A DNA stretch of 39,568 nt, taken from the IMG/VR virus record IMGVR_UViG_3300017987_000033. One strand, given 5' to 3'. The DNA is from a virus. Of the stretch, positions 914 to 35,727 are shown piece after piece (the first letter of the stretch is position 1; the number at the start of each line of letters is the position of its first letter). Under the pieces are notes generated by a model. The model saw only the letters and a program-made list of their open reading frames with translations. It searched no databases and was not told where the DNA came from. Both the position numbers and the translations under genes were made by a program.

Positions 914-3900
914 CAAAAACCCTTTCCTTTTAAGATAGCTTCTAAGCTTTCAAGGCGATCTTCAAGACTGGATATTTTTTTTGACTGCTTAATAAGCTCA
1001 TTTAATAATAACTGAGGAAGATCATGATATTTAACGTTATAAGGCAACCCTTCATCATCCAAATTAACCAACAAAGGCATGTGCTCCATAACCTCTTCAG
1101 CTATCAAACCATACTGCCTACGCTTAGAAAGATCGTTCTTATAGTTAAATACAACAGGTCTTAAATCCAAAATAGAAGAACTATACGAATCCATATCGTA
1201 AATATTCTCTTTAAACCTTTTAGATGATGTAGTTGTTCCAAATAGTCCAGTATCATCAACTAATACAGCCGCATTAGTACCACCTATTGATTTACCATAA
1301 ACAGGTAAAGATTGAATCGTTCCTGTACCTTTAGGTGTAATAACTATATCAATATTAGCATCTGTACCATCAGCAGCTAAAGTAGTACCAGTAAGCGTTA
1401 ACCCAGCTGCTGCAACATTAGTATCAAACGTTGTTGCATTCATAGTTGTTACTGTAGGTGTTGAACTCCAAGAAGCGTCAGCTCCAGTGGTTCCTATTAG
1501 AACTTCCCCTGTAGATCCAACTGCAGTAGCTGTTATAGCTCCAGTTCCAGAACCTAAAAGAACTCCATGGTCAGTTAATGTAGCAGCCCCAGTACCACCG
1601 TTAGCAACCCCTAGTGAAGCCACTGAACCAAGTTGACCATTAGAATCAACATAGGCTACATTTAATGTGCCACCTGGTGTTACTCCATAAATACCAGCAA
1701 TATAGCAAGCATTATGATTAGTAGAATTACCAATTCTTATTTTTCCAGATTCTGCAGCTACACCTTCATGGCAAAGACATATATTATAACTCTCAGAATC
1801 AGTATAAAGATATCCAGCTGCATATGTATTAGCTCGTCCCAAGGCTAAATTATGAGACCCATGCAATAATTGACCTAAAGTATTATTTCCTAGGGCAGCG
1901 TTGTGATCAGAATCAATTAATTCAAATAGCGCAGACTGGCCAATCGCGGTATTGTACGACCCAGACGTCAAATCCAGCAATGTTTGCGATCCTTGCCCAT
2001 TGTTGGCCTGACCAGATGTTACAGATTTTAAGCATTGATATCCGAGCCCCAAATTATTATTTCCAGTTAATGTAAAATTACCCGCTTCTTTGCCTAAAAA
2101 AACACTGTTAGTTCCATATGCATGAAGATACCTGCTAGCATTTATGGTTATCTGACCATCAGTAGCCGTTGTAGTAGGTAAATTAATACTTCCAGAACTT
2201 ACATCTACATCTCCTGTGGTGACTGTTACTCCAGTGCCAGCTGTTACAGAACCAGTTGTAGTCAAAGATGTCACTGTAGGTGTCAATGTTGAACCAAGCT
2301 GACCATTACTATCTGTAACAACAAGTCCATCATTGCCTCCTGTAGGTGTTACTCCATAAATACCAGCGATATAGGTAGTGTCTTGTTGTCCATTACCAGT
2401 TCCCTGTGTTCCAATATGTATAGTGTTTGACTCTGAAACCGTACCAGTATTAGCGATACATACGTTAGAAGACTCTGATGACGTATAACTATATCCTGAA
2501 GCTTGGCCAATACACGTATTATAAGATCCAGTACTAACGCCATTAGAAAAAGTTGCATTTCCGATAGTCGTATTATACTCACCAGTCGATATATTCGCTC
2601 CAGAACTAGTTCCGATACAAACATTTCTAGATCCTGATGTTAAACCATTTAATGTATTATAACCAAATCCAAAATTATATTTCGCTGTTCCAGGTGTTAG
2701 CGTGAAGTTACCCGAAGAATTTCCTATAAAAACATTATAGTCAGCTGCTAATCCATAAGAATGAATAAGTCTAGTTCCATTTTGAATTATCTGACCATCA
2801 GCTGATGTAGTAGTCGGTAACTTTAAACTTCCAGAACTTACATCTACATCTCCGGTAGTTACGGTCACTCCTGTGCCAGATGTTACAGAACCAGAAAATG
2901 AAGGACTTCCTGTCCATGTTGGGTCAGCTCCCGTTGAGCCCATTAAAGTCTCACCTGTCGCGCCAACCGCTAATGATCCTATAGCAACACCTGTTCCATT
3001 GCCTAAAAGCAAAGCATGATCTGTTGTCGTCTTACCCCATTCATCAATAGTTTCTAGCGCAGCCTGAACAGTAGTATCAGCAGAATCCAGAATACCATCA
3101 AAATTAGTTACATTTGTTACCACTAACGAAGCTTGATTTGTTCCACCTAACGACGAGCCAGTTGTTAAAGTTTCCTTAGAGATAACTACATCTATTATAG
3201 AATCAGTACTCTTTTGGTAAATTATATATCCAAGCCTTGAATTCTCTAGCTTTGCAACCTCATTTGTCGCTACAGCAGTAGTCCCATTAGATATGGCAGC
3301 ATCTGCAGCAGCTAAATTACTATACTGTGATGTGTCTAAAACAGCTCCATAAACAGGAATAGATGAATTAAGATTATCCTTAGAAACATAAAGAGTATAA
3401 ACACCATATTTATTGGCATCTAATACAGTAGCCGTACCAGCATTATTATAATAACCAGTAAATGTATCATTATAATTTTGCCTTACCCATTTACCCGATG
3501 CGTCTGTATGCATCTTAACAAAATCAACTGCCACGCCCGCACTATCAGGAATAGTTGTATACAACCCATGATCACTTAACTCATCAGTACCAACTATTTC
3601 TATTTTTTGAGTACCATTAAGAGTTATATTAGCTCCACCAGAGTGATTTTCTATTATACAGCCTATAGTATTATGAGCATATATAGATACAGCAACAGGA
3701 AAATCATAAGGATGGTTCTCTTTAACTGTAACCTGATTATTAGTAGGTAAAGTGCTATCACGCATACACTGAAATAACGGAATATAATCCTGGAATGTAG
3801 CTAGATCAAAAGAAGTTGTCTTACCTATAGTTCCAGTATCGTCGATATAAATTAAATACGTATTACCAGCTGTTAACCCACTTACTGTTTGACCTCCAGC

Positions 3901-4887
3901 CCATGTTACAGGTACACCTTTTATGTAACCAGTCCCACCAACTAGAAGCTCAAAATCACCTAAAACAGTATCATCAAAATATGGACCCGCAGCAGACCAA
4001 GACTCAAACCCTGTATCACTTTGCAACACAGCATAAGTATCTACAGTTACTGCTCCTGCAACATCAGTTACATCAAGATAAGTAGACGATACACTCAGAA
4101 CTCCACTAGGAGCCGGTGCCTGAAACGTAGGCGCTGTTCCCGCTCCATTTGCTGTTAATAAATACCCAGATATAGCCGCTCCTGTTACAACTCCTATCGT
4201 ATCTGCCGCTGATGCTACAAGTACATCACCTATAGCAACAGAATCTGGATACGTAGAAGCAGTCCATGTTGGATAATTAGCACTAACACCCATCAACAAT
4301 TTTCCGCTATCTCCAACAGCAATAGGAGAAAGAGAAGCTGCTCCTGCACCAGAAAGCAAAGCAAAAGGTGTGTGCATAGCTGCACCTGTTCCACCATTAG
4401 GAACATCTAAGGCAGCTCCAAGGCTTAAGTCGTTTATAACAACCTTCCCTGTACCTTTGGCGGTTATGTTTATGTCTATGTCGGCATCGGTTCCATTCGC
4501 TACAATACTATTTCCAGACATTGCAAGACCAGTAGCAGCTACCCTAGTCTGAAAAATATTAGCGTTAATCGTCCCCAAAGTAATAACATCGTCTAAATTT
4601 ATTGTTACAGTACTACCTGCACTCGTTGTACCTATATTGGTACCACCAGCAACAGTTAAAACATTTAAAGCTGGAATAGCAGAGTTAGCATCGTCCGTTA
4701 AGTATGAAGTTGCTAACGCTCCACCTAAGTTTATAGTTAACGTATTACCCGCTCCAGATGTAGTTATAGTTCCATCACCTATTATATTTATATTACCAGC
4801 ACCATCAGGACTTAACGCCCCACCAGCATCTCCAGTAATAGTAGTGAGTAAGCTATTAGAAAAAAAAACCCTAGAAAGTTGTGACAT
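913..4887 (-). CDS. Long tail fibre (1324 aa) with two tandem beta-roll head modules and a C-terminal peptidase-S74 intramolecular chaperone domain
   Basis: The C-terminus reads TSSKRFKENIYDMDS...LRPVVFNYKND...YGLIAEEV...LPQLLLNELIKQ, the Ser..Lys dyad pattern of endosialidase-type chaperones. It has Gly/Thr/Asn/Ala-rich repeats, and the motifs GTGVTVTTGDVDVSSGS and IAGIYGVTP each occur twice. Confidence 0.85.
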   Translation of the reverse strand: MSQLSRVFFSNSLLTTITGDAGGALSPDGAGNINIIGDGTITTSGAGNTLTINLGGALATSYLTDDANSAIPALNVLTVAGGTNIGTTSAGSTVTINLDDVITLGTINANIFQTRVAATGLAMSGNSIVANGTDADIDINITAKGTGKVVINDLSLGAALDVPNGGTGAAMHTPFALLSGAGAASLSPIAVGDSGKLLMGVSANYPTWTASTYPDSVAIGDVLVASAADTIGVVTGAAISGYLLTANGAGTAPTFQAPAPSGVLSVSSTYLDVTDVAGAVTVDTYAVLQSDTGFESWSAAGPYFDDTVLGDFELLVGGTGYIKGVPVTWAGGQTVSGLTAGNTYLIYIDDTGTIGKTTSFDLATFQDYIPLFQCMRDSTLPTNNQVTVKENHPYDFPVAVSIYAHNTIGCIIENHSGGANITLNGTQKIEIVGTDELSDHGLYTTIPDSAGVAVDFVKMHTDASGKWVRQNYNDTFTGYYNNAGTATVLDANKYGVYTLYVSKDNLNSSIPVYGAVLDTSQYSNLAAADAAISNGTTAVATNEVAKLENSRLGYIIYQKSTDSIIDVVISKETLTTGSSLGGTNQASLVVTNVTNFDGILDSADTTVQAALETIDEWGKTTTDHALLLGNGTGVAIGSLAVGATGETLMGSTGADPTWTGSPSFSGSVTSGTGVTVTTGDVDVSSGSLKLPTTTSADGQIIQNGTRLIHSYGLAADYNVFIGNSSGNFTLTPGTAKYNFGFGYNTLNGLTSGSRNVCIGTSSGANISTGEYNTTIGNATFSNGVSTGSYNTCIGQASGYSYTSSESSNVCIANTGTVSESNTIHIGTQGTGNGQQDTTYIAGIYGVTPTGGNDGLVVTDSNGQLGSTLTPTVTSLTTTGSVTAGTGVTVTTGDVDVSSGSINLPTTTATDGQITINASRYLHAYGTNSVFLGKEAGNFTLTGNNNLGLGYQCLKSVTSGQANNGQGSQTLLDLTSGSYNTAIGQSALFELIDSDHNAALGNNTLGQLLHGSHNLALGRANTYAAGYLYTDSESYNICLCHEGVAAESGKIRIGNSTNHNACYIAGIYGVTPGGTLNVAYVDSNGQLGSVASLGVANGGTGAATLTDHGVLLGSGTGAITATAVGSTGEVLIGTTGADASWSSTPTVTTMNATTFDTNVAAAGLTLTGTTLAADGTDANIDIVITPKGTGTIQSLPVYGKSIGGTNAAVLVDDTGLFGTTTSSKRFKENIYDMDSYSSSILDLRPVVFNYKNDLSKRRQYGLIAEEVMEHMPLLVNLDDEGLPYNVKYHDLPQLLLNELIKQSKKISSLEDRLESLEAILKGKGF

Positions 4888-17177: not shown

Positions 17178-18128
17178 TTAAGCTAAAGTACAAGCTAATC
17201 TTAAAATCCATAGATCATTTAAGATTCTTGAAGCGTGAGACATTTTCCAACCCAAAGTATAATTCTGAGCCAACGGATCATTAAGTTCTGGAGGCCTGTA
17301 AATAAACTTGGCCGTTGCACCGCTTTGTTGTATAGAAGTATAACTTTCCATACCGGTGACAAATACGTTGTAAACGTCAGTTCCAGTTAAAGCTCCAGCT
17401 CCAACTGATTTTGAACCACCAGATGAAGTTAAGAATCTTATACCACCAACAGCACCAATTTCAGAACTTAAAATTCCACCCTGAGATGGATAATTAGCAA
17501 CATCGATATAACCTGATGTATTGCTAATTTCAGTTGATAAGTCGGTATCACACATTCCAAAGAATGCATTTCTTACCGGGCCTGTACCAAATTTATTAGC
17601 ACCTTCAATAGAATCTGAAATGTAAACAGCATCATTACCCCTAAGAGTCTGAACTGCTTGATCTATATCATAACGTGTAATATTACTTGGTATATTTCCG
17701 TTTGTTCCGGCTACACAGTTAACCAATGTTGCAGATGTTGCAAGCATATTTCTGATAAGCTGGTCTTCTGTCTTTCTAAGTGCTACACCAAATCTTATTG
17801 ATAGCTGATTCAATACAGGATCTTGTGAATTTAAGTCAACTTGTTCGTTAACCGACATCCATTGTCCATAATGTTGAATCTTAGCATCAATAAATAATGA
17901 TTCTGGTTGCACAGGAGCTGGGGTCTCACCAGTATTACTTAGTGGTACCAATGCTGTAGGAAGTTCTTCATATCTTTTAAAACGATAATACTCACCAGTT
18001 CTTTTAGCTTTAGTAGCCTTTAACGCAAAAAGACCGTGAATGTTCTTTTGTGTTGGTGTAGCTAAAATCTTATTATCAAAAGCTAATTGAATTGCTGGTG
18101 GCATTGTAGAAGTAGAAACTATTGCCAT
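17178..18128 (-). CDS. Major capsid protein, HK97 fold, N4-gp56-like family
   Basis: Segments YRFKRYEELPTALVPLSNTGETPAP...IDAKIQHYGQWMSVNEQVDLNSQDPVLNQL and the C-terminal NDPLAQNYTLGWKMSHASRILND match my recollection of this capsid family. The gene has its own promoter and a strong AAGGAA ribosome-binding site. Confidence 0.75.
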   Translation of the reverse strand: MAIVSTSTMPPAIQLAFDNKILATPTQKNIHGLFALKATKAKRTGEYYRFKRYEELPTALVPLSNTGETPAPVQPESLFIDAKIQHYGQWMSVNEQVDLNSQDPVLNQLSIRFGVALRKTEDQLIRNMLATSATLVNCVAGTNGNIPSNITRYDIDQAVQTLRGNDAVYISDSIEGANKFGTGPVRNAFFGMCDTDLSTEISNTSGYIDVANYPSQGGILSSEIGAVGGIRFLTSSGGSKSVGAGALTGTDVYNVFVTGMESYTSIQQSGATAKFIYRPPELNDPLAQNYTLGWKMSHASRILNDLWILRLACTLA

Positions 18129-18292
18129 TAGATTTCCTTATTAATTTGTTCTTAATTAAAACAACAACTTCATAAGGTGACGAGCCTGTTAGACTTAAAG
18201 CCTAATACGTCATGGCTTGCGAGGCCGGAGTGAAACACTCTACGCGGTTTGAACTGGCGAAGCTCGGGACTTTAACGTCCTACGCCAAGATT
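18129..18292 (-). promoter_or_regulatory. GC-rich, multi-hairpin 5' leader or candidate cis-regulatory RNA of the capsid gene
   Basis: It is locally GC-rich in an AT-rich genome. Hairpins in minus-sense are GGAC-GUUAAA-GUCC nested in GGCG...CGCC, GAGUG-UUU-CACUC, GGC-CUCGCAA-GCC and UGACG...CGUCA, plus a long-range CGAGCUU/AGGCUCG pairing. Confidence 0.35.
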
Positions 18293-18322
18293 ATTATAGA
18301 GTAATTATGAATGAATATTCAA
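18293..18322 (-). promoter_or_regulatory. Sigma70-like promoter of the capsid operon
   Basis: The minus strand reads TTGAAT, an 18-nt spacer, then TATAAT (-10 at 18298-18293, -35 at 18322-18317). Confidence 0.55.
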
Positions 18323-18392
18323 GAGATATTAAAAGAGGCGCCGCAAGGAAACTTTAGAAACCCTACAACGCCTACAAGAAACGTTAGCAGTA

Positions 18393-18481
18393 TAGCATTG
18401 TGCCAACAAATAAAATAGACCGAAATCATTAAAATATATAAACACTTTGCTTTTAGTTAAAAAAACAACGGCACAATGCTA
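18393..18481. repeat. Perfect 12-bp inverted repeat (tagcattgtgcc / ggcacaatgcta) separated by 65 AT-rich nt
   Basis: Read directly. The right arm starts 3 nt after the stop of gene 18484..19047. Confidence 0.8.
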
Positions 18482-18483
18482 GA

Positions 18484-19047
18484 TCATCTTACATTAAATA
18501 ATTTATTAGCCAAAATCACCGAAAGAAACGGCAACCCACTGTTCCATATTTTATCAGAAGCCGATGATGCCATAAGAGAGATAGTAGCCAGAGGCTTTTC
18601 ATAAAGCATATCCCACATTGCCTGAGTGTGACCCAACTCTTTACTAAGGTGATACTTACCCTCAAGCTCACCTATACTTGAAACTAAAACAGAAAGATTA
18701 TCACTATTACTAAATGTTTTAGATATGACCCTTGAACCAACATTAGCAACAGAATCAATCCCATAATTAAAGATCTTACCCAAAAGCTCACCAACAGGTT
18801 CTGGTGGGAAAAGGTAGCAGTAAAGCATAATTGTTGGTAAACCAACCAATGTAGCCCTAATAGCACCTTTGCGAGACAAAAAGCTATCAAAGCCATCAAC
18901 GATAGCGTTAGCCGATTTCTCAACCTTGTTCATAAGAACATGCTTATCTATAGGCGACATCTTATCAACATCAGCCAAACTAAGCACGTTAAGGTTGGAA
19001 GCCCTAGCATTAAAACTTAAAAATAATAACAAAAGTATCTTTTTCAT
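18484..19047 (-). CDS. Secreted or membrane protein of unknown function (island gene 3), 187 aa
   Basis: N-terminal signal-peptide-like MKKILLLLFLSFNARA and an internal hydrophobic segment LVGLPTIMLYCYLF. Confidence 0.6.
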   Translation of the reverse strand: MKKILLLLFLSFNARASNLNVLSLADVDKMSPIDKHVLMNKVEKSANAIVDGFDSFLSRKGAIRATLVGLPTIMLYCYLFPPEPVGELLGKIFNYGIDSVANVGSRVISKTFSNSDNLSVLVSSIGELEGKYHLSKELGHTQAMWDMLYEKPLATISLMASSASDKIWNSGLPFLSVILANKLFNVR

Positions 19048-19153: not shown

Positions 19154-20845
19154 TTACTTACCTAAATTTTGAGCCCTTTGAAGTAACTTAAAGAAAGCAT
19201 CAATATTCTCTTCATTCTCGTCTAGCTTCTGCTTGGCTATCATCGCCGCTGTACCCAACGCAGAACCAACACCCAACGCAACACCTCCAAGTCCTATTCC
19301 AGCCATCTTGGTCGCATCCCAAGCGTTTTCAAAAAAAGTAGGACCAGACGGAACATGTGACGCTTTTGGTGTTGGCCTAGGAGCAGGAGCAGGAGTAAAT
19401 TCTGGAACATTAACATGAGGAGATGAAGCTGGAACGAATGTAGGCGTAACTCGTGGTACCATACGAGGTCTATCTTGGCTCTTAGGTATACTTGCGTTAG
19501 ACACATCAACAGGAACTTCATTGGTCTGTGTATTATCAGGAATAGGCTCAGGACCCGTTGAAGTAGTATCTGTTTTTTCTTCAGTGACTATCGGCTCGAC
19601 AACAATATCACCCAATGTCTCACAAGGCCCCTGATCAGTTACAGGTGTCGAGGACACAGGTGCCGCTGACTCTTGAGTCGCTGACTCTTGAGCCGAAGAC
19701 AAAACAGCTGCAGCAGTAACCGTTTCAGTTGCATCTAAATTCTTATTAACCTGCTTAATTGTTTCTTCTATAGATGTATTTGTTGCTATATGCTCAGCCT
19801 TCTTTTTAACTTTACTAACTAAATCGGCTTTGCGGTCAGCCTCAGCTTTGTCGGTCTGCTTTTTATCTTCTTCTGCTTTTCTTTTAGCTTCTCTGTCTGT
19901 TGTTTTATCTTTCCTAGAACGTTCTCTTACAGCAGGAGGAGCAAACTTACCAAGTTCACTTGCAATTTGATCAAGTGGATAACCATTTGCCTGCATGACT
20001 TCGAACCTTTCACGCTTTTCAGGAGTATCTGCTAAATAAGACTTAATATTTTGCCTCTCTTCATAACTATGTGTATTTTCAAAGCTATCTGGAAACTGCC
20101 TTGCATAAATATTATCTAGCATTTTATCAAGCTTATTATCATGTAGCTCTTTTTCTAGTTTTGCACCTTTTTCAGCAACTTTCCTTCTAGCCTCTACCCG
20201 TCCTTTATGTGTAAGTAATTTAGTAGCGTCAGCTATACCTGTAGCCGCAGCTGCTGCCACAGTAGCCGTAGCTGCGGCTACTACCGGAGCAGCTTTAACA
20301 ATCTCAGGAATAACTTCTGGAGCCTCTAACACTAACTCAACTACAGCATCATAAACATTGTGCATTAAAAATGCAGTACCATTACTATCAGCCTGAAAGT
20401 AATTATGAACCTTATTTAGAGACAAAATATAAAAACTTATAGGAGGACCTGTAGTCTGGAAGTCAGTTACCGCTTCAATATCATAAGACTTTAACTCATG
20501 ACTCAATATCTTATCCCCAACACTCAACTCTTTTACGCTTATAAAACTATTTTTATTAACACAGAATATTCTTGCCTCTCTAGAACAACACAGAATCCCT
20601 GATGAGGTTTTTATAATGATTACGTTAATGGATTTAAATTTTAAAAGGCTACTTACCTGAATGTTTCTAAACTCACCATTTTTTAGGCAAGCTACATTAT
20701 CAAAAATAGTAAATCTCTCTATAGGCTTAAAACCAGTACTCGAATTTCTGGTAGCTACTAAAGAACCCTTAGGAACACCTGGCTTAGTATAATTAAATAA
20801 TACAAGTAGTAAGAATATACATACAGCAGATATCTTTTTCCACAT
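19154..20845 (-). CDS. Membrane-anchored protein (563 aa) with an N-terminal Hint / bacterial-intein-like domain, an Ala-rich hydrophobic segment, a Lys/Glu-rich coiled region, a Pro/Thr-rich region and a C-terminal TM helix
   Basis: Signal/anchor MWKKISAVCIFLLLVLF. Hint blocks SLVATRNSSTGFKPIERF, ISVKELSVGDKILSH and YDIEAVTDF...FYILSLNKVHNYFQADSNGTAFLMHN. C-terminal GIGLGGVALGVGSALGTAAMIA. Confidence 0.65.
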   Translation of the reverse strand: MWKKISAVCIFLLLVLFNYTKPGVPKGSLVATRNSSTGFKPIERFTIFDNVACLKNGEFRNIQVSSLLKFKSINVIIIKTSSGILCCSREARIFCVNKNSFISVKELSVGDKILSHELKSYDIEAVTDFQTTGPPISFYILSLNKVHNYFQADSNGTAFLMHNVYDAVVELVLEAPEVIPEIVKAAPVVAAATATVAAAAATGIADATKLLTHKGRVEARRKVAEKGAKLEKELHDNKLDKMLDNIYARQFPDSFENTHSYEERQNIKSYLADTPEKRERFEVMQANGYPLDQIASELGKFAPPAVRERSRKDKTTDREAKRKAEEDKKQTDKAEADRKADLVSKVKKKAEHIATNTSIEETIKQVNKNLDATETVTAAAVLSSAQESATQESAAPVSSTPVTDQGPCETLGDIVVEPIVTEEKTDTTSTGPEPIPDNTQTNEVPVDVSNASIPKSQDRPRMVPRVTPTFVPASSPHVNVPEFTPAPAPRPTPKASHVPSGPTFFENAWDATKMAGIGLGGVALGVGSALGTAAMIAKQKLDENEENIDAFFKLLQRAQNLGK

Positions 20846-20917: not shown

Positions 20918-21739
20918 TTACAATGTAGAATTACAAAGCTGAATGTAATAATCTAAGTCAGCACACTCAAATTCTGGTTCGCCAAGCAATGCTATTATTA
21001 TTTGTGGAGTCACTGATATTCCTGCACCTATAAGAATTAAAGCGGTCTTTTTCAGCAAAGAAAACATTGTCTGGGCCTTAGTCCTTGGAAGCTTAGAGCT
21101 GTCTATTATAGTAAGCGGAGGAAGCTTACTGTCGATCTCTATTATTTTCTTAAAAAAACATAATCTATTAGATCCTGTGTTTAGTCTATCTAACTCACTC
21201 TCAATCTCTGGAGTTATGCTTTTCCATACAGAAGACAGTAGATCAGCCATAAAAGAAAGACTTCTTGGGTTATGCTCTGGGTGAGTTAACTCAAGATCTT
21301 GCCTAAGCATAGAAGGATCGGAAAACTTTCTTATTCCGGTATATTTATGCAATTCAGGCAAAGTTAACCTAAATTCTTTCTCACTAGGATCTGTTATAGA
21401 AATATTGAACCTATTATTCTTAAACGACATATATCTTACTTTAGGATTAAGTAGCGCAAAAGAAATAGCTCCATAAGGAATAGAGGTTAGATCCATATTC
21501 TCTAAGATCAAGTTACTAACTTCGTATTGCTGAATAAAATGTTTAATATGTTCAAATATCTGCGAAAAACCATCGTCTCCAACAGGCAGATTACTAAGAT
21601 CCAAAGTTTTAGACTCGGGAGAATAATAATTCCTTAAAGAAAACGTATTTAGTGATACATTATGGAGTTCTATGACATGCGGTTGCTCCATAGAAAATAA
21701 GCAAGAGCTGAAAGACAATAGAAGAAGTATTTTTTTCAT
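20918..21739 (-). CDS. Secreted type-I membrane protein with a leucine-rich-repeat-like region (island gene 1), 273 aa from MKKILLLL
   Basis: Signal peptide MKKILLLLSFSSCLFS, the segment LDLSNLPVGDDGFSQIFEHIKHFIQQYEVSNLILENMDLTS, and a C-terminal TM ALILIGAGISVTPQIIIALLG. The start is set at 21739 because the longer ORF would run across a terminator hairpin. Confidence 0.55.
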   Translation of the reverse strand: MKKILLLLSFSSCLFSMEQPHVIELHNVSLNTFSLRNYYSPESKTLDLSNLPVGDDGFSQIFEHIKHFIQQYEVSNLILENMDLTSIPYGAISFALLNPKVRYMSFKNNRFNISITDPSEKEFRLTLPELHKYTGIRKFSDPSMLRQDLELTHPEHNPRSLSFMADLLSSVWKSITPEIESELDRLNTGSNRLCFFKKIIEIDSKLPPLTIIDSSKLPRTKAQTMFSLLKKTALILIGAGISVTPQIIIALLGEPEFECADLDYYIQLCNSTL

Positions 21740-21751
21740 ATTAATCCTAAT

Positions 21752-21785
21752 AAAAAAAAGGCAACCCGCGAGGAACAGGCTGCCC
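21752..21785 (-). terminator. Intrinsic terminator after the scaffold gene
   Basis: Minus-sense GGCAGCC-(11 nt)-GGTTGCC followed by T8, about 42 nt downstream of the stop at 21827. Confidence 0.65.
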
Positions 21786-21826
21786 AAAGAGAATAGTAAA
21801 GGAGAATTTGTCGCAAGTCTTTTTTA

Positions 21827-23793: not shown

Positions 23794-25827
23794 TTATATT
23801 TTTGAAGCAACAGTGGCCTTTGCAACATCACTTGGACCATCTTCGTTAGCCTCAGACTGAGCCTGAAGCAACTTAGATAAAGCCACAAGCTTTTGTAGCT
23901 GATCTATGTCTACATTATCTATTTCCTGCATACCCTTCAACAGATCAAGTAAACCAGCAGCCCTGTCTTTATAAGCCTCAGCCTTACGTTCTTCAGCTAA
24001 CTCTTTATTCTCTTCTATTCGAGATACTCTTTCTAAGCCAAGACCCTTATCAGCTGTTGCTCTTGCGTGCGCCAAATCAGTACGAGCCTGTATTTCTGCC
24101 ATCTGAACTTGAGCTTGTTGCTGTTGCATTTGCTGTTCTTGCTGCTGTTGTTGTTGAACGGTTTTAATAAGATCTGATTTATTTTGTAATGTTACTGCCT
24201 CAATTAAACTTTCATCAGGTATAGGAACACCAATCTCACGAAGCTTAATATACTGAGCAAACTGCATTTGTTTTTGAGTTGTAGTATTAAGTCCCTCTTC
24301 AACAGCACAGTCATACTTACCGAAAGCCTTATTATAAAACTGAGGCAACGGCTCTTCGTTTAATATGCGCTTAACTTTACCCGGCATAAAATTGTTTTGA
24401 ATAACACCTAAAAGTTTAGAGCCTAAAAGTTTAAGTGCGTAATCAGCGTTACTAAAAATAGGTTGCAATGTTGTCAAACCAGCAGACTGTCTTAACATCG
24501 CAAGTACACCGGCTTTGTCATCTACTGCTGAGCCTAACAACTCTTCAGAAACACCTGAAATACTGTTAATCTCATCACCCATTGCCCTAGATACTTCCAA
24601 GGTTGATGGAGGTATACTTCCCGGCTGTATCTGCTGTAAGTCGGTCATTTGAGCACTAGACTTAACAACCAATGACTTACCTTGACCGGTTTTAAATACA
24701 TCCATCGGATTAACAAGAGCGCCCTCTTTATATATCCAGCCAGAAGTAACTTGAGATTCAAGCATGTCGAGCTCTATAGCCTTACGCCTGTTATACAAGA
24801 ACTGAGCATCTATTAACCCACGAACAACACCTTGTATCCTCCATGTGTAATCAGTAATTTGAGGATTAAAGTAACATAAAACAGGAACAAACGGATAAGA
24901 ATCAATACCTAAAGGATTAGGTCCATCGTACATAATCTTACCCTGCAGAACTATGGTAAGTCTTACTGTTGGAATATCTTGCTCTACCACCGAAACCTGA
25001 GGATACATCTTTAAAAACTTCTCAAGACCTTCGGGGTCGTTCTTGTCCCATTCCATAGACTCACCTGTCTGCTTATCAACAAGTAATTTTTGAGACCTAA
25101 AAGAACGGTAATAATATTCGTCGTAAGACATAAGATTATTATTCGCGGCATCAAACGTCTCCGGAAGGTAATTAAATTTGCCATCCTTAGAATTTGACGT
25201 AGAAAGAGACATGATAATATCTTTCTTGTCTGGCAAATAAGACAAAGCTTCGCTGCGAGTTATATAAGTCCTCTTCCATATAAAGTTACAGTCAGATAAA
25301 TCTTTTTTCTTAAAGAAAGGGTCAATAATAAAGGTGTTATAAGGGCAATTTTCGACAACAACATCTCCAGAAACAGGATCTGCCCTATAATCCATTGTTA
25401 CCTGAATTAGTGATATACCACCAACAACAGAATCATGAAAAGAATCAGAAAAAGTTTCGAGTATCCCAGAACCTCTATCAAGCCACATCAAGATCTTACT
25501 AAACTGATCCGCTGTTTCCTGGTCAGCATTTTCTACAGGAATAGCAATTATAGACTTTCTATTTTTACATTGATGACCATGAATCATGTTAACGGTAGTT
25601 CTAATATGGTTCAGACTTAATAGATTACGCCTTGAAGCAGGAACATTATTATAAAGCTCTGACCAAAGATTAGGATCTCCAGCTTCAGCCCTAGAATCTC
25701 TATCAGCCATCCCCCACATAGTCTCATTAATAGATATTACCCTAGTATAACTATCCTCCATAACCTCTAAACGAGCTCTATCTTCAGGATCTCTAACCTC
25801 ATAAGGAACCTCTGGAAATATTGCCAT
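23794..25827 (-). CDS. Portal protein, 677 aa
   Basis: It directly follows the large terminase and has a typical size. It has a Gln-rich and charged C-terminal tail (QQQQQEQQMQQQQAQVQ). Confidence 0.7.
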   Translation of the reverse strand: MAIFPEVPYEVRDPEDRARLEVMEDSYTRVISINETMWGMADRDSRAEAGDPNLWSELYNNVPASRRNLLSLNHIRTTVNMIHGHQCKNRKSIIAIPVENADQETADQFSKILMWLDRGSGILETFSDSFHDSVVGGISLIQVTMDYRADPVSGDVVVENCPYNTFIIDPFFKKKDLSDCNFIWKRTYITRSEALSYLPDKKDIIMSLSTSNSKDGKFNYLPETFDAANNNLMSYDEYYYRSFRSQKLLVDKQTGESMEWDKNDPEGLEKFLKMYPQVSVVEQDIPTVRLTIVLQGKIMYDGPNPLGIDSYPFVPVLCYFNPQITDYTWRIQGVVRGLIDAQFLYNRRKAIELDMLESQVTSGWIYKEGALVNPMDVFKTGQGKSLVVKSSAQMTDLQQIQPGSIPPSTLEVSRAMGDEINSISGVSEELLGSAVDDKAGVLAMLRQSAGLTTLQPIFSNADYALKLLGSKLLGVIQNNFMPGKVKRILNEEPLPQFYNKAFGKYDCAVEEGLNTTTQKQMQFAQYIKLREIGVPIPDESLIEAVTLQNKSDLIKTVQQQQQQEQQMQQQQAQVQMAEIQARTDLAHARATADKGLGLERVSRIEENKELAEERKAEAYKDRAAGLLDLLKGMQEIDNVDIDQLQKLVALSKLLQAQSEANEDGPSDVAKATVASKI

Positions 25828-25982: not shown

Positions 25983-28541
25983 CTATCTAAAAACGTCTGG
26001 CAACCCCGAGGACGATCCGTACATTGCCTGGTTGTATAACTCGTCAACATCTTCTTGTGTAGCCTCATCTCGCGACGAAGGAACGCTAATTGCAAGCAAA
26101 CGTGCACAATCTGAAAAATGAGAACTGCTATCATGAAAAGGCTTATCCGCATAAACTTTCCTCTCATTATCATACTCCCTCCTGTAAGACTCAAGAGCCT
26201 TAATTAACTTGTCACAGTTACGCTCATCGATCCAAACCCTAGGAAGCAAAGCACGAACGGCTTCTATGCCGTCTGATATAGGCAACTTGGGCGCAACATG
26301 GAAATTAATTCCAAGCTGTCTGGCTCTGTCTATTCTCTTTACAGCTCCTCCAGCCCATTCTCTAACCTGTATGTCATGCGGCGCCCAGTGTTTACCGTAT
26401 GCATAGTCCTTGCTGTGAATAATTTTAGCATAATGATCTAACCCGAGATCAATATTAGTATACGAATCTATAATCGATACCGACTGTCCCTTAATCTGGA
26501 ACCAGATTATACAAGTTGCATCAGATACCCCCAAATCCCAAGCTGTATGCACCTTAAAAGCAGGATCATAAGGAACGTTGGTTATCTGACCTTTAAGCCT
26601 AAGATTATTCATTATCTTAGAGTAATATGACCCCTCCACACCCATATCAAAACTACAATAATACTCTTGTTGCACTAAGTCCTCAGACATCACACCTTCA
26701 TCTATTTCTCGCTGAATAACTTCTTTTGATATGTGTTTAGTATCATCGCAGGTCAACCTATAAGCAAACCAATACTTAGGATTCTGTTTAGCTATTTTCC
26801 ATAAATCATAAAAACTATTGTGCCCAAATGGCGTATTGTGGCTTATGAATCCATTACTAAAAAAAGAATGCGTTTCAGGAATAACAAAATCAAAGACTTC
26901 TGACTCTGAATTAGTTATTGATACAATCCTTGAATAAAACAACTTCTCTTTAAGCAGTGATTTTAAATATTCATTACCTGGATGCTTTAAATAAATAGAT
27001 TCTAAAGTACGCCTTCTAATTTTTGAAGGATTCGTAACGTTAAACTTAAATATATCTGCATTTACCGGGTATACATTGCCCGACCCTGATCGTATCTTTT
27101 CTGAAATATACCTAGCAACCTTTTGCTTTCTTTTTAGCCTAAACCCTATTTCAGAAAAGAATTTGTAAGCAAAGTAACCCTCAATTTCTAAAATAAATAT
27201 AACGCTTGAAGCTTTTACCTTTTTAGTTGGCGGATTAGTTCTCTTGCTAACCAAAGAAACTATTCCAAAATTAAGAAGCACCACCTGAAGATCAAGAACA
27301 AACCCCTCACAAGCTGAGGCGAACGTTATATGACCCCTCTTACGTTTTTTATGGTTGGTATTACTATTACCATCACCATCAAATAATCCTTGTAGAAACG
27401 CAGCCAATTGCTCTTTCGTACATTCAAATAATTTTTCCGGAAAGGTTTTATTCTTAGCGCCGCGTTTAAAACCAAGGTATTCAAGAAAATTTACTAGGTT
27501 GGTAGCCGATAACACATGATGAATACCATCTTTTTGAGTCCTAAAACCAAACTTATTTATAAAACTTACAATCTCGTGGTCTTTCTTTTTTGTAATAGTT
27601 ACCTTACTAGAGTCGAAACTTCCATCAGCATGAATTAAGCCTAAAAGATAAAAATAATCTTTATTAAGGTCTAAATCAGATACATTAGTTCGTATTCTAT
27701 AGTCATCATTATTAACGAAATCACTTATATCTAACCCAGATCCAAAAACGTTCTGACCGTACTGAATCGGTAACAAGTCGCCAAGCTTAAGGTCTCTTGA
27801 CTTAATCCACTCTGACCCATTCCATAATGGATGGACCTTAGTACACTCAATCTCAAATCCAGAAGCTAACTTTATCTTTAAAGTCTCTTGCTTTCCTCCA
27901 TAGTAAAAATCGGTAGCATTGTTAAATCCATTAAGACCAAAAATAGGTGAATTAAACTTGGTGTACTCTTTTCTTGAATCGGATAACTTACTAATCCTTT
28001 TAAGACCTTTTTCTGAAATTACTAATGTATTTGGCGCAACACATGATATAAATAAACACCACCCTCCGTTTGCTGCCAAGATAGGTGATATAAACTTGTA
28101 CGCATTTGGATCCGCCCTTGAGTATTCAGAAAATATAACTGCGTATGGATTAGTTCCAACAAGCCTGTTGTAAGAATCAGAACCAGCAAGCTGCAATATA
28201 GATCCATTAAAAAAAGTTATCTTCATCTCAGAAGAGTTAAGGCTAACTATAAGCTCTTCAGGTATAAAATCTAAAAGCCTCTTTCCATCTATGGTTATAC
28301 AATCCCATATTACACGTCGAGCCTGAGAAAATGTGGGAAGAAGGTAGTAGATTATACAGCGCTTACGAAGAGCCTGACGAACAGCAATGTTAAAAGCAGC
28401 AATATCCTTCCCGGCGCGGCGCGGCATCACTGCAATAATCTTCTTCATCCCTTTATTCTCTATAGCATCTACAATGGGTAACTGATAGGAACGCGGCTTA
28501 AACCTATCAAGCTTTACTATTTTCTTCTCTTTTTCTGCCAA
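25983..28541 (-). CDS. terL: Terminase large subunit precursor (852 aa) containing an intein. The spliced product would be 449 aa.
   Basis: N-terminal ATPase-type motif VMPRRAGKDIAAFN. The C-terminal nuclease-type region includes HTAWDLGVSDATCIIW and PHD. A TTG start sits 5 nt after a GAGGAG ribosome-binding site. Confidence 0.9.
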   Translation of the reverse strand: MAEKEKKIVKLDRFKPRSYQLPIVDAIENKGMKKIIAVMPRRAGKDIAAFNIAVRQALRKRCIIYYLLPTFSQARRVIWDCITIDGKRLLDFIPEELIVSLNSSEMKITFFNGSILQLAGSDSYNRLVGTNPYAVIFSEYSRADPNAYKFISPILAANGGWCLFISCVAPNTLVISEKGLKRISKLSDSRKEYTKFNSPIFGLNGFNNATDFYYGGKQETLKIKLASGFEIECTKVHPLWNGSEWIKSRDLKLGDLLPIQYGQNVFGSGLDISDFVNNDDYRIRTNVSDLDLNKDYFYLLGLIHADGSFDSSKVTITKKKDHEIVSFINKFGFRTQKDGIHHVLSATNLVNFLEYLGFKRGAKNKTFPEKLFECTKEQLAAFLQGLFDGDGNSNTNHKKRKRGHITFASACEGFVLDLQVVLLNFGIVSLVSKRTNPPTKKVKASSVIFILEIEGYFAYKFFSEIGFRLKRKQKVARYISEKIRSGSGNVYPVNADIFKFNVTNPSKIRRRTLESIYLKHPGNEYLKSLLKEKLFYSRIVSITNSESEVFDFVIPETHSFFSNGFISHNTPFGHNSFYDLWKIAKQNPKYWFAYRLTCDDTKHISKEVIQREIDEGVMSEDLVQQEYYCSFDMGVEGSYYSKIMNNLRLKGQITNVPYDPAFKVHTAWDLGVSDATCIIWFQIKGQSVSIIDSYTNIDLGLDHYAKIIHSKDYAYGKHWAPHDIQVREWAGGAVKRIDRARQLGINFHVAPKLPISDGIEAVRALLPRVWIDERNCDKLIKALESYRREYDNERKVYADKPFHDSSSHFSDCARLLAISVPSSRDEATQEDVDELYNQAMYGSSSGLPDVFR
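26835..28043 (-). mobile_element. Intein (403 aa) with a LAGLIDADG homing-endonuclease domain inside terL
   Basis: Block A CVAPNTLVISEKG (Cys1 codon at 28043-28041) and block B ECTKVHPLW. LAGLIDADG motifs LLGLIHADGSF and FLQGLFDGDGNS. Blocks F/G VFDFVIPETHSFFSNGFISHN, followed by Thr+1 (Asn codon at 26837-26835). Confidence 0.85.
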
Positions 28542-31424: not shown

Positions 31425-32837
31425 TTATTTTAACAGCTTTTCGCAAATAGCCAAAATGTCTAGAGTAACAACATGAAGTCCTTCTGCGAATATAGTCCTG
31501 AGTGCAAGCACGGCCATAAGCTTTGCTCTATAAAAACTTGTTCTAGCATCTTCCCACGGATCATCTATACCCTTTGATATCATATACCTTATCAATACAG
31601 TCCTAAGAGTCAGGTACATCGACGCATGACCAGCTATTAATGCAGTTCCAACTCGGTATATCTCACTTGCTACCTCATCTTTCAGGCGCGCCATCTTAAG
31701 CTGATGGGTCCAAAGATGAAGATGTGGCTTTGTCTTTTCAAGTACAATTCCAAATTCAGTTTGTAGCTCCCTATCTAAACGTTCAGTGTCAGCTTTTACA
31801 TGTTCTAGTGTAACAGGACTGTAAGTAAGAATCTTAGCGCATACGTCATCCATAGACCTAATTTCATTTACTTGCTTATACCCTTTACGGGCTGGTCTAT
31901 TGTTAAACTGCTTATTAACTTCCCTTTTGTGGTTTCTTGCGATCCCGTTAGCTTCCAAAAAAGAAGTAATTTTTGAATCGTGTTGGCTATTGCCTATAGT
32001 TAAACCAAAGTGGGTTATACCATACATACTCTTTAGACAGTTAACCAAAAAGTGATCAACCTTTAGGTTATTAATGTGCGATATTCTGTCGCAGATTACA
32101 GTAAATTGCTCAAAGTAGTCATCAAATAAGCTCATGTCAGTTTCTTCGTAAACCTTTAGGGCCTCTAAGAGAACTTCGTTAGAGTAACCCATAAGTTTTA
32201 TAATGCCATGTTGAGTTAGACAGAATACTCCTAGGCATTTTGTGAGGCCCCTGAAGTTAATTAGAGCCTTTATGTCCAATTTTGTCCCATTTTTTACCGA
32301 ATCAATAAATTCATAGGAATTTTCTACTTTATTGTTCTCTTCTCCGAACATATTTAACCCTAATTGACTCAATATCTGTATAGAAAGTTTTTTCATATTT
32401 AAGTAATTTAAATATTTATAGTTAGGTGTGAAGTTAGTTGTTAATAACTTGTAGATCGATGGAAAGAGCCTTACAAGCCACTTGATATTCTTAGCCGCAA
32501 ATAGTTTTTCAGGGACCATGTAGATACAAGTCTTCCTGTGGCGATAAATTTTCTTAAGCAACCCTAAAGAGACAAGATCTTTTATACACTTGTTAGTCCA
32601 CTCTCTAGTTATGCCAACATTATCAGCTATGTGGGCCTGACTAGAGAATATTCCATTTTGACGTGGAAGCATGCAAAAAATGTAATCTAATATGCCGCGC
32701 TTGGCATCTGAAAGACCAAAAAGAAGGTGCTTTAAATTTATAGCCGGTATAGAAAACCCAGGCTCACGAAGAAAGTTGTAGTTTATCTTATTGTTTCTGT
32801 CTAAAACTCTTGATTTATCAATGCATTCTGCTAACAT
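31425..32837 (-). CDS. Replication initiator candidate with a winged-helix DNA-binding domain, 470 aa
   Basis: The segment ILDYIFCMLPRQNGIFSSQAHIADNVGITREWTNKCIKDLVSLGLLKKIYRHRKTCIYMV fits the wHTH pattern of phage and plasmid initiators. The gene lies directly downstream of the iteron array. Confidence 0.5.
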   Translation of the reverse strand: MLAECIDKSRVLDRNNKINYNFLREPGFSIPAINLKHLLFGLSDAKRGILDYIFCMLPRQNGIFSSQAHIADNVGITREWTNKCIKDLVSLGLLKKIYRHRKTCIYMVPEKLFAAKNIKWLVRLFPSIYKLLTTNFTPNYKYLNYLNMKKLSIQILSQLGLNMFGEENNKVENSYEFIDSVKNGTKLDIKALINFRGLTKCLGVFCLTQHGIIKLMGYSNEVLLEALKVYEETDMSLFDDYFEQFTVICDRISHINNLKVDHFLVNCLKSMYGITHFGLTIGNSQHDSKITSFLEANGIARNHKREVNKQFNNRPARKGYKQVNEIRSMDDVCAKILTYSPVTLEHVKADTERLDRELQTEFGIVLEKTKPHLHLWTHQLKMARLKDEVASEIYRVGTALIAGHASMYLTLRTVLIRYMISKGIDDPWEDARTSFYRAKLMAVLALRTIFAEGLHVVTLDILAICEKLLK

Positions 32838-32841
32838 TAGA

Positions 32842-33047
32842 TCCTCTTTATAACATAAAATCCTCTTTAAAGGGATTTTGAAATTCTACTTCGGGGTTTT
32901 GAAATTCTCTTTATAAGGTCCTCTTTAAAGGGATTTTGAAATTCTACTTCGGGGTTTTGAAATTCTCTTTATAAGGTCCTCTTTTTTAAAGGGATTTTGA
33001 AATTCTACTTCGGGGTTTTGAAATTCTCTTTATAAGGTCCTCTTTTA
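32842..33047. repeat. Iteron array: three tandem direct repeats (58, 58 and 61 bp) plus partial flanking copies, a putative origin of replication
   Basis: Units are 32861-32918, 32919-32976 and 32977-33037. The unit sequence is tcctctttaaagggattttgaaattctacttcggggttttgaaattctctttataagg. Each has two TTTTGAAATTCT 12-mers 21 nt apart and the palindrome CTTTAAAG. Confidence 0.85.
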
Positions 33048-34129: not shown

Positions 34130-34645
34130 ATGGAAGACAAGCAAGTTACAAGAGACGACCTAAAAAAACTTCAAGAGTATTTTATGAAAAAAATAGAAAT
34201 ACTTAGCACTGCAGTAAAAGAAGTAATTAACGATAAACAAGAAGAGCCATCAGAGCCATACCGCTCAGATGAAATAGATAAGCTTGCAGAGGCCTTAGCT
34301 GCGGCACAGGCCACCATGTCTGTAGCCAGAAAAGACTCAAGAGCTCATAACTCAGTTTATGCTACATTTGCAGACCTTAAAAAAGCAGCTGACCCTTCTT
34401 TAAACAAAAACGGACTATCCGTTATTCAGACATATACTAACGGAAACCTTAAAACCTTACTTTTACATTCATCAGGACAATGGATAAGCTCAAAAGTAAG
34501 CATCTTGGATTACATAAACCCCAACACACGACTATCTAAACAACAAGAGTTTGGGTCAACAAGATCATACCTAAAAAGATACTCCTACCAAGATATAACC
34601 GGAGTTGTAGATGCAAAAGAAGACGATAATAATGGATATAAATAA
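34130..34645 (+). CDS. ERF-family single-strand annealing protein, short paralogue, 171 aa
   Basis: LAEALAAAQATMSVARKDSRAHNSVYATFADLKKAADPSLNKNGLSVIQ...LLLHSSGQWISSKV...FGSTRSYLKRYSYQDITGV fits the ERF pattern. Confidence 0.65.
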   Translation: MEDKQVTRDDLKKLQEYFMKKIEILSTAVKEVINDKQEEPSEPYRSDEIDKLAEALAAAQATMSVARKDSRAHNSVYATFADLKKAADPSLNKNGLSVIQTYTNGNLKTLLLHSSGQWISSKVSILDYINPNTRLSKQQEFGSTRSYLKRYSYQDITGVVDAKEDDNNGYK

Positions 34646-34967: not shown

Positions 34968-34983
34968 TACCTAAGGAGAGTTG

Positions 34984-35727
34984 ATGGAAAGTAATATAAG
35001 TAACGAAACACTGCTTAAATCTATCGAAGAGCTAACTAAAAAAATAGATAAAATAAATAAAGAAAAACCATACAGCAAATCTTACCAGTCACAACAAACT
35101 AACGAGCTCAACGCATCACTTGCAAAAACCTTTAGCGAATACCCTCAAATAAAATATAACCGAAAAGACAGCTACTTCGGAAACGACTACGCAGACCTAG
35201 ACCTAATCCTAACTAACATGAGACCACTACTCTCTAAGAACGATCTTTCTATCACTACTAGGACAATCATACTAGACAGCGGAGAAACTATCTTAGAAAC
35301 CAGATTATGGCACTCCTCAGGTCAATGGATAGAATCCCGAGCTAGACTACTCCCATCCAAGAACGACACCCAAACATATTCATCAGCGCTTATGCACCTA
35401 ACACGAACTCAGATCATGGCCATTTTAAGTATCACTGTAATTAATAACCCTGACGATGACAACGCAGTAAGACAAATGGCTTCCGCAAGAGAGATAATAG
35501 CAAGAGCAGCATCAGGCGCTAACGTCTACGACTCCAAAAAAGAAAGCTTCGAGCCAATATCTAAAGACCAAGTCGCCGAAATAGAAAACGAAATGGTAAA
35601 CCTCGATGACTTCCGATCTGAAATACTTGACGCATACAGAATACAAAGCATAACCGACCTACCTAAATCTAAATACAGAACCGCACTCAACAGAATACGA
35701 GAAATAAAAAATAAACTCGGACGATAA
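34984..35727 (+). CDS. ERF-family single-strand annealing protein, long paralogue, 247 aa from the ATG
   Basis: RKDSYFGNDYADLDLILTNMRPLLSKNDLSI...RLWHSSGQWIESRA...YSSALMHLTRTQIMAILSI. An AAGGAG site sits 5 nt upstream of the ATG at 34984. Confidence 0.65.
   Translation: MESNISNETLLKSIEELTKKIDKINKEKPYSKSYQSQQTNELNASLAKTFSEYPQIKYNRKDSYFGNDYADLDLILTNMRPLLSKNDLSITTRTIILDSGETILETRLWHSSGQWIESRARLLPSKNDTQTYSSALMHLTRTQIMAILSITVINNPDDDNAVRQMASAREIIARAASGANVYDSKKESFEPISKDQVAEIENEMVNLDDFRSEILDAYRIQSITDLPKSKYRTALNRIREIKNKLGR

Follow-up and report, generated by a model that had tools for sequence, protein, structure and literature searches.

The IMG/VR virus record IMGVR_UViG_3300017987_000033 comprises 39,568 nucleotides, and this whole stretch of DNA, referred to below as the window, is a phage genome encoding a P22-like portal protein, a terminase, a capsid protein, and tail-fibre and tail-spike proteins. 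On its minus strand lies an open reading frame (ORF) for a protein of 563 amino acids (aa), designated P0001, in which a Hint domain is set between an N-terminal signal sequence and a membrane-associated remainder (Table 1). Hint chemistry underlies inteins, Hedgehog signalling, and toxin release. A protein identical to P0001 is present on 4-6 metagenomic contigs, and orthologues were found in only two other phage contigs, L001 (P0002, 486 aa) and L005, which is also from IMG/VR (P0003, 626 aa); the overall identity between P0001 and P0002 is 42%. Immediately downstream of the Hint gene is a second gene, which encodes a 187-aa protein and is called the partner gene here.

Table 1. Positions of the Hint gene, its segments, and other annotated genes in the window, with segment identities to the two phage orthologues (KD, Kyte-Doolittle hydropathy; TM, transmembrane segment)
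Feature	Coordinates	Strand	Evidence	Identity to P0002 / P0003
Whole ORF (P0001), 563 aa: signal sequence, Hint domain, TM, low-complexity region, TM, short tail	19154..20845	-	ORF list	
Residues 1-22, Sec-type signal sequence: MWKK, hydrophobic core ISAVCIFLLLVLF, NYTKP	20780..20845	-	KD 19-residue mean 1.6	
Residues 23-163, Hint domain, BIL/PT-HINT-like, without Cys1 and block-B Thr/His	20357..20779	-	AlphaFold2, Foldseek, HMMER	72% / 59-60%
H162-N163, block G penultimate His and terminal Asn; predicted scissile site N163/V164 (Asn cyclisation)	20357..20362	-	Alignment invariance	
Residues 164-181, acidic amphipathic linker (VYDAVVELVLEAPEVIPE) 3' of the predicted cut	20303..20356	-	Low-confidence AlphaFold2 helix (model residues 143-152)	67% / 39%
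Residues 182-204, Ala/Val-rich hydrophobic segment, predicted stop-transfer TM helix (TM1)	20234..20302	-	KD mean 1.5-1.7	61% / 39%
Residues 205-513, low-complexity inter-TM region (~310 aa): charged, then Thr/Ala, then Pro; poorly conserved	19307..20233	-	Composition	19-27%, many gaps
Residues 514-537, C-terminal glycine-zipper-like TM (MAGIGLGGVALGVGSALGTAAMIA)	19235..19306	-	KD mean 1.67; kept in 3/3 phage orthologues	54% / 42%
Partner gene, 187 aa: signal sequence and internal hydrophobic segments	18484..19047	-	Directly downstream of Hint gene	
Major capsid protein	17178-18128		Pfam/PHROG scans	
P22-like portal	23794-25827		Pfam/PHROG scans	
Large terminase, 852 aa, interrupted by canonical LAGLIDADG intein	25983-28541	-	Intein_splicing 1.1e-10, LAGLIDADG_3 2.3e-16	

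Fold and catalytic residues of the Hint domain

Residues 23-163 of P0001 form a true Hint domain. In Pfam, the sole relevant match was PT-HINT (PF07591), and it was weak, with 20.1 bits and E = 8e-4 for the domain alone and 16.6 bits for the whole protein; the Pfam Hint model (PF01079) gave no match to P0001. A profile of two phage domains matched a single entry among 177,635 PDB sequences, the 'bacterial intein-like (BIL) domain' 2LWY, at E = 0.06. Word-indexed homologue searches were nearly blind to this subfamily (0-2 matches), and an exhaustive index-free HMMER search of 1.84 billion representatives with the domain profile retrieved 36 proteins at E<=1e-3, of which 30 contain PT-HINT (best 3e-55), 18 Intein_splicing, and 15 Hint. 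Structure prediction by AlphaFold2 depended on the depth of the alignment: the mean predicted local distance difference test score (pLDDT) was 30 with a two-sequence alignment versus 87.6 with 22 family members, and in the latter model nearly all of residues 23-163 exceeded 90. The best Foldseek match of this model in the PDB was again 2LWY, the BIL domain of Clostridium thermocellum (E 1.6e-8, template modelling score 0.87, root-mean-square deviation 2.0 Å), followed by the BUBL BIL2 domains of Tetrahymena (6Y75/6TMM) and then by about 45 inteins. There were 51 PDB matches at E<=1e-3, and every one of the 50 listed is a BIL domain or an intein; the matches among viral structures are inteins and assorted 'Hint' proteins. 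Two of the checks proposed with the original prediction, which had been made from the nucleotide sequence, were a match to Hint profiles and a superposition of the predicted fold, and both came out in its favour, the former through the PT-HINT content of the retrieved relatives and the latter through the BIL and intein structures that head the Foldseek results. The placement of a Hint/BIL-type domain directly after an N-terminal signal sequence was likewise borne out. As for its extent, the domain had been assigned to residues 28-163; the fold is real and these residues do correspond to 20357-20764, and the start lies five residues earlier, at G23. The remark that no characterised phage counterpart was recognised also holds, given that neither a tblastn search of the 563-aa protein against 50,697 phage records nor a PHROGs search returned any match.

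The alignment register was taken from a MAFFT alignment in which the 22 family members were combined with 11 canonical Hint repeats that bear Cys1 and come from the same HMMER search; the blocks are numbered according to the standard intein nomenclature. The canonical start GGG/CFxxGTxV (C-F-x-x-G-T-x-V) aligns with G23-V-P-K-G27-S28-L-V, so that position 1 is Gly23. Ser28, which had been proposed as the N-terminal nucleophile, occupies the conserved block-A Thr position, six residues into the domain, and was rejected for that role on this register. S88 and A91 stand where block B has its Thr and His, and I140 stands in the place of the F:4 Asp; H147 corresponds to the F:13 His, H162-N163 make up block G, and Val164 occupies +1. 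The central segment ISVKELSVGDKILSH and the block F/G stretch ...HNYFQADSNGTAFLMHN, both of which had been picked out from the sequence, are true Hint blocks in this alignment, and the alignment also confirms the missing block-B TxxH motif and the Val at +1. Across the 22-member subfamily, position 1 is G, D, E, or S and never the canonical Cys, the block-B His is lost throughout, and the +1 residue is variable (V, N, F, G, M, Y, E, A, L). The subfamily is further marked by an insertion of 3-5 residues between blocks F and G with the consensus F-F-x-C-D-S-x-G, which reads YFQADSNG in P0001; the internal cysteines of the 141-aa domain of P0001 are C54, C86, C87, and C95. The only invariant columns, in the 36-sequence as well as in the 22-sequence alignment, are H162 and N163. 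Protein splicing would be impossible because there is neither a +1 nucleophile nor a TxxH motif, as the original prediction had argued. Its alternative, N- or C-terminal cleavage, is retained in part: the C-terminal reaction is compatible with the residues present, and the N-terminal set (the position-1 nucleophile, the block-B Thr/His, and the F:4 Asp) has been lost, which would leave C-terminal cleavage only.

Relatives in Dependentiae and the partner gene

The 36 matches fall into two groups by layout. Group 1 consists of canonical tandem Hint repeats (GGG/CF..GT ... VHN/KGGC) and of ubiquitin-Hint polyproteins, while group 2, to which P0001 belongs, combines a signal peptide, a Hint domain without Cys1, the terminal HN, a hydrophobic segment, and a variable C-terminus. 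As read from the alignment, approximately 15 of the 22 group-2 members possess a (-3,-1) signal-peptidase site exactly ahead of Hint position 1 (LFS/G, LNA/G, VFG/D), and the mature protein would thus start with the Hint domain and have no N-extein. Four group-2 members (P0009, P0012, P0013, and P0035) score above the PT-HINT cutoff, with 31-50 bits. Among the ubiquitin-Hint polyproteins, P0006 and P0015 are the best matches outside the subfamily (E 7e-14 for P0006, the best of all) and alternate ubiquitin-like units with Cys1-bearing Hint domains in a BUBL-like arrangement, as in ciliates; these matches may indicate that genes have been exchanged between protist hosts and their Dependentiae parasites.

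The distribution of group 2 was examined with a degenerate DNA motif for its C-terminal block, FFxCDSxGxx[LIV][LIV]xHN, in a scan of 185,579 GTDB species genomes. The motif occurred at five places, four of which are in the candidate division TM6/Dependentiae, with three being paralogues in one single-cell genome. The sole match outside this division (L009, CAZFDQ010000131.1, 590-1249, minus strand) lies in a metagenome-assembled genome labelled 'uncultured Pseudomonadota', in an 8-kb stretch of 32% GC, and encodes a minimal family member composed of a signal, a Hint domain, one TM, and a short basic tail; it may reflect an error in binning or represent a system that is truly minimal. A literature search returned nothing on Hint domains in Dependentiae, and the Cys1-less signal-Hint-TM subfamily is previously undescribed.

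The C-terminal domains of the relatives are shuffled independently of the Hint type. Ntox21 is present in one of the 36 proteins, P0012 shows a weak match to a colicin-E3-like 'Cytotoxic' domain, and small downstream ORFs vary in step with the C-terminal domain (L013_5163 resembles L006 1975-2487, and L012_7848 resembles L007 2680-3084). This arrangement matches polymorphic-toxin logic, and the signal-Hint-TM proteins of Dependentiae may be regarded as polymorphic-toxin-like proteins with immunity-like genes downstream. In Sec-exported polymorphic toxins, Hint is the releasing peptidase set just ahead of the payload (Zhang et al. 2012, PMC3482391). The cellular relatives fit the pattern of a recognisable toxin domain accompanied by a cognate immunity gene, whereas the phage protein does not show this combination.

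The partner gene directly follows the Hint gene in all three phage contigs (the window, L001, and L005). Its homologues are found one to three genes away from the closest cellular Hint genes (those of P0004, P0005, and a paralogue) in L011/L012 (tblastn E 9e-19 and 7e-11) and in L013 (6e-5; 1e-9 with a hidden Markov model), and secreted pentapeptide-repeat proteins accompany the cellular Hint and partner genes in these loci. Since the partner-bearing systems carry different payloads, the partner appears to go with the leader and not with the payload. A function of the 187-aa neighbour as a payload-specific immunity protein was rejected because its homologues accompany Hint genes with different C-termini. 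The cellular loci L012 (GCA_030630075.1, DAOVNS010000034.1, 1433-8252) and L013 (2210-5663) share a cassette of a partner-like membrane protein, a secreted pentapeptide-repeat protein, a signal peptide-Hint-TM-payload protein, and one or two small immunity-like ORFs; in L012 the cassette is tandemly duplicated, and the second partner copy has 125 aa versus 224 aa.

Two further observations concern the immediate surroundings of the pair in the window. The partner gene and the major capsid gene are separated by 355 non-coding nucleotides (18129-18483), an unusually long gap in which the region's best sigma-70-like site is located (TTGAAT-18-TATAAT, 18322-18293, minus strand). Scanning the window for Rfam families and tRNAs, with the gap included for Rfam, gave no match. 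On the other side, a gene at 20918-21787 (minus strand, likely true start 21739) has a product of about 273 aa that bears a signal peptide and a hydrophobic segment at its C-terminal end and matches no known family. The gene is inserted, in the window only, between the Hint gene and the gene for the putative scaffold, is absent from L001 and L005, is preceded by a terminator-like hairpin (21785-21759), and looks like a moron.

Predicted autoprocessing and rival explanations

With moderate confidence, P0001 is considered to be an exported, membrane-embedded protein whose Hint ectodomain would be autoprocessing, with cleavage at its C-terminus only, and would be shed. In the proposed sequence of events, the signal sequence would carry the Hint domain across the cytoplasmic membrane; in most relatives the signal-peptidase cut would fall precisely at Hint position 1, and the signal of P0001 may stay as an anchor. 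The domain then takes the fold seen in the model, in which Cys1, the block-B Thr/His, and the F:4 Asp are replaced by Gly23, Ser88/Ala91, and Ile140, respectively, and His147 and His162-Asn163 are kept. Next, Asn163 would most likely cyclise to a succinimide and thereby break the N163-V164 bond, which is the C-terminal reaction of inteins and A-type BIL domains. This step is plausible without Cys1 because that C-terminal chemistry is independent of it; Cys1Ala inteins still perform C-terminal cleavage, as in the Ssp DnaB C1A purification tags. A-type BIL domains with a C-terminal His-Asn are described as cleaving their C-terminus via Asn (review PMC7765530). The reaction would shed a Hint ectodomain of ~15 kDa, while a ~43-kDa fragment starting at V164 would be retained in the membrane by TM 182-204 and the glycine-zipper TM 514-537. 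The hydropathy of TM 182-204, together with an acidic stretch before it (net -4) and a Lys/Arg-rich stretch after it (THKGRVEARRKVAEKGAK), predicts under the positive-inside rule that this helix has an outside N-terminus and an inside C-terminus, and most family members share the pattern. The low-complexity region between the two TMs would most likely face the cytoplasm; in 50-residue windows its composition reaches 60% charged residues and 26% Pro, and residues 205-513 have no Pfam, PHROG, or PDB sequence match. The original prediction had envisaged that the downstream portion is released; its separation from the Hint domain by autoprocessing remains the best reading, although it is better described as shedding of the Hint ectodomain, with the remainder staying in the membrane.

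The signal-Hint-TM unit would be a reusable leader, which in Candidatus Dependentiae is joined to varied toxin-like C-termini and in the phage to a putatively membrane-active payload, where it would act together with the 187-aa partner. As to function, the likeliest role is at the host envelope, such as superinfection exclusion, membrane permeabilisation, or lysis, although this is a guess. Endolysin and holin genes, which were sought to place the Hint gene in a lysis cassette, were not recognisable among the ORFs scanned against Pfam and/or PHROGs, with several small ORFs outside that scan.

A number of points weigh against this picture. The PT-HINT score of the phage domain is under the gathering cutoff of 27.7 bits, and the cleavage chemistry of P0001 is deduced wholly from its sequence. 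The F:13 His is not universal, being replaced by Tyr in P0002 and by N, T, or S in a number of relatives. The counterpart in P0001 of the signal-peptidase site is poor (TKP/G), and its signal sequence may for this reason be uncleaved and kept as a signal anchor. TM 182-204 is only moderately hydrophobic (KD ~1.7) and may fail to halt transfer, which would place the long linker in the periplasm; conversely, the positive-inside topology would put the toxin-like domains of the cellular relatives in the cytoplasm of the producer, which is awkward for a delivered toxin. Furthermore, the phage payload contains no toxin, holin, or lysin domain recognisable in Pfam, PHROG, or PDB searches, and the assignment of a Dependentiae host would follow only from the distribution of homologues.

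The strongest competitor, in our view unlikely but deserving consideration, is that the Hint domain is catalytically dead and that the protein stays uncut, with the domain kept only for its fold on the periplasmic or extracellular side, where it might for instance serve in binding or oligomerisation. Hint-like modules without catalytic activity are generally known, all of the N-terminal catalytic residues are gone, and the replacement of the F:13 His in P0002 extends to several relatives. However, the His-Asn pair at the exact end of the domain is the sole feature fixed among 22 to 36 sequences that are only 18-28% identical to P0001, and the payload of the relatives always begins directly after it; because this pair alone is fixed, a purely structural role would be unexpected. 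A decaying remnant is also disfavoured, since no other segment is as well conserved among the phage orthologues as the Hint domain (Table 1).

It is improbable that P0001 is an internal or ejection protein of the virion, or a head-assembly protein, that is matured by self-cleavage and whose N-terminal hydrophobic stretch is not an export signal. In the window and in L001, the Hint and partner genes do lie between the portal and putative scaffold genes on one side and the major capsid gene on the other, but in L005 the pair is located elsewhere, on the strand opposite to the head genes and next to the ERF recombinase genes, and the putative scaffold and capsid genes adjoin each other. In addition, the N-terminus has the classic n-h-c layout of a signal, as do those of the partner and the cellular homologues, and the cellular homologues reside in chromosomal toxin-like cassettes. 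A role in head morphogenesis was rejected because of the position of the pair in L005, and for the same reason the Hint gene and the 187-aa gene can be regarded as a mobile two-gene module and not as head genes.

Processing at both ends, in which Ser28 or another Ser or Cys forms an N-terminal (thio)ester for BIL-type N-cleavage or a class-3-like internal Cys takes this part, is very improbable: although Ser28 is kept as Ser or Thr in most relatives and many of them have the Cys of FFxCDSxG near block F, Ser28 is not at position 1, the block-B His that would activate the N-terminal scissile bond is lost family-wide, the family Cys does not lie at F:4 and is replaced by Ala152 in P0001, by Ala in P0002, and by Gly in P0003, which also led to rejection of the class-3-intein-like candidate, and in most relatives the N-terminal cut would already be supplied by signal peptidase.

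Beyond C-terminal cleavage and shedding of the Hint ectodomain, a bolder proposal is offered tentatively, and taken as a whole it is more doubtful than the reading on which it builds. The signal peptide, the nucleophile-less Hint domain, the TM, and the 187-aa partner could together constitute an undescribed processing or insertion system of Dependentiae toxin-like loci that has been captured by their phages, and the window could be the complete genome of a Dependentiae phage with a host-derived envelope weapon. Signal peptidase would make the Hint N-terminus, the sole reaction of the domain would be its Asn-mediated self-removal, and the payload would be membrane-anchored with its N-terminus out. 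A literature search on Dependentiae and phage gave no title describing a Dependentiae phage among the matches listed. If cleavage occurs, a subfamily that lacks the N-terminal half of the mechanism but retains a strict His-Asn would give a clear-cut case in nature of 'C-terminal cleavage only', and a Hint domain located at the signal-peptidase site and ahead of a TM suggests a route to membrane proteins with a defined extracytoplasmic N-terminus. The analysis further reveals that Dependentiae, an obligate intracellular phylum for which metagenomes are almost the only source of knowledge, has a multi-copy family of toxin-like genes with a conserved partner, and it gives a host clue for an otherwise unassignable lineage of 39.4-kb podovirus-like phages. 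A compact, exported, 141-aa Hint domain that is predicted to cleave C-terminally without Cys1 could, in addition, interest protein engineers.

The phage genome and comparison with known systems

The first 123 bases of the window are repeated exactly and directly at its end (1-123 = 39446-39568), and the window therefore represents a closed phage genome, circular or terminally redundant, of ~39,445 bp; a relative, IMGVR_UViG_3300028029_000141, has 39,587 bp. The portal protein is ~25% identical to those of the nearest phage records, which are podoviruses of Pseudomonas, Burkholderia, and Serratia. The terminase orthologue of L005 (858 aa) probably carries an intein as well, because it aligns over its full length with the intein-bearing terminase of the window. 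Three tandem copies of a 58-61-nucleotide unit, 97-100% identical, are located at 32861-33045 just upstream of a 470-aa helix-turn-helix gene (31425-32837, minus strand) and look like an iteron or origin region. Two paralogues of the ERF-family single-strand annealing protein are encoded side by side on the plus strand (34130-34645 and 34981-35727). At opposite ends of the contig, two large tail-fibre/tail-spike genes (913-4887 and 36648-39401, minus strand) have diverged repeats in common (D1, D3, D5), and the 1324-aa tail gene product has at its end an intramolecular chaperone domain of the Peptidase_S74 family, which gives this phage a second self-cleaving module, unrelated to Hint.

Among known systems, the phage Hint domain appears to work like the A-type BIL domains and the PT-HINT domains, although it departs from the defining features of each, and it is no intein. 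The A-type BIL domains are said to go back to work by Amitai and colleagues in 2003 and Dassa and colleagues in 2004. The phage domain shares with them the Hint fold, with 2LWY being both its best structural match and its only PDB profile match, the His-Asn end, a non-nucleophilic +1 residue, an occurrence in variable secreted proteins, and the expected Asn-based C-terminal cleavage. In contrast, BIL domains keep the N-terminal Cys and block B and can cut or even splice N-terminally, whereas the phage domain has a Gly at position 1 that abuts the signal sequence, no block-B Thr/His, and the 'DSxGx' insertion of 3-5 residues. Pretoxin HINT (PF07591) is the closest Pfam family, in which Hint likewise stands directly ahead of a variable payload in proteins with Sec signals, and the cellular relatives of the phage domain have immunity-like genes downstream; however, canonical members begin with Cys and are located deep within large toxins (RHS, filamentous haemagglutinin), while the phage domain is sub-cutoff, would be the first domain of the mature protein, and is followed by a TM helix and a payload without a recognisable toxin. 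The BUBL polyproteins of Tetrahymena (6Y75, 6TMM), the second-best structural match, are cytoplasmic eukaryotic proteins whose domains, unlike that of the phage, keep Cys1 and process both ends to free ubiquitin-like units.

Inteins, including the one in the terminase of this phage, have in common with the phage Hint domain the fold, blocks A, F, and G, the C-terminal His-Asn, and, by prediction, Asn cyclisation as the C-terminal step. On the other hand, the phage domain has Gly23 in place of a position-1 Cys/Ser, S88/A91 in place of the block-B TxxH, and Val164 in place of a +1 Cys/Ser/Thr, it carries no homing endonuclease, and it interrupts no host protein whose exteins would be ligated. 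An origin from the terminase intein of the phage was rejected because the nearest relatives of the domain are Dependentiae-type PT-HINT proteins and not inteins. The C-terminal Hint domain of Hedgehog resembles the phage domain in residing in a secretory compartment within a signal-peptide-bearing protein; its Cys1, which has no counterpart in the phage domain, cuts N-terminally with transfer of cholesterol, the Hedgehog type also includes a sterol-recognition region, and there is no terminal Asn, so that its polarity is opposite to that predicted for the phage Hint domain.

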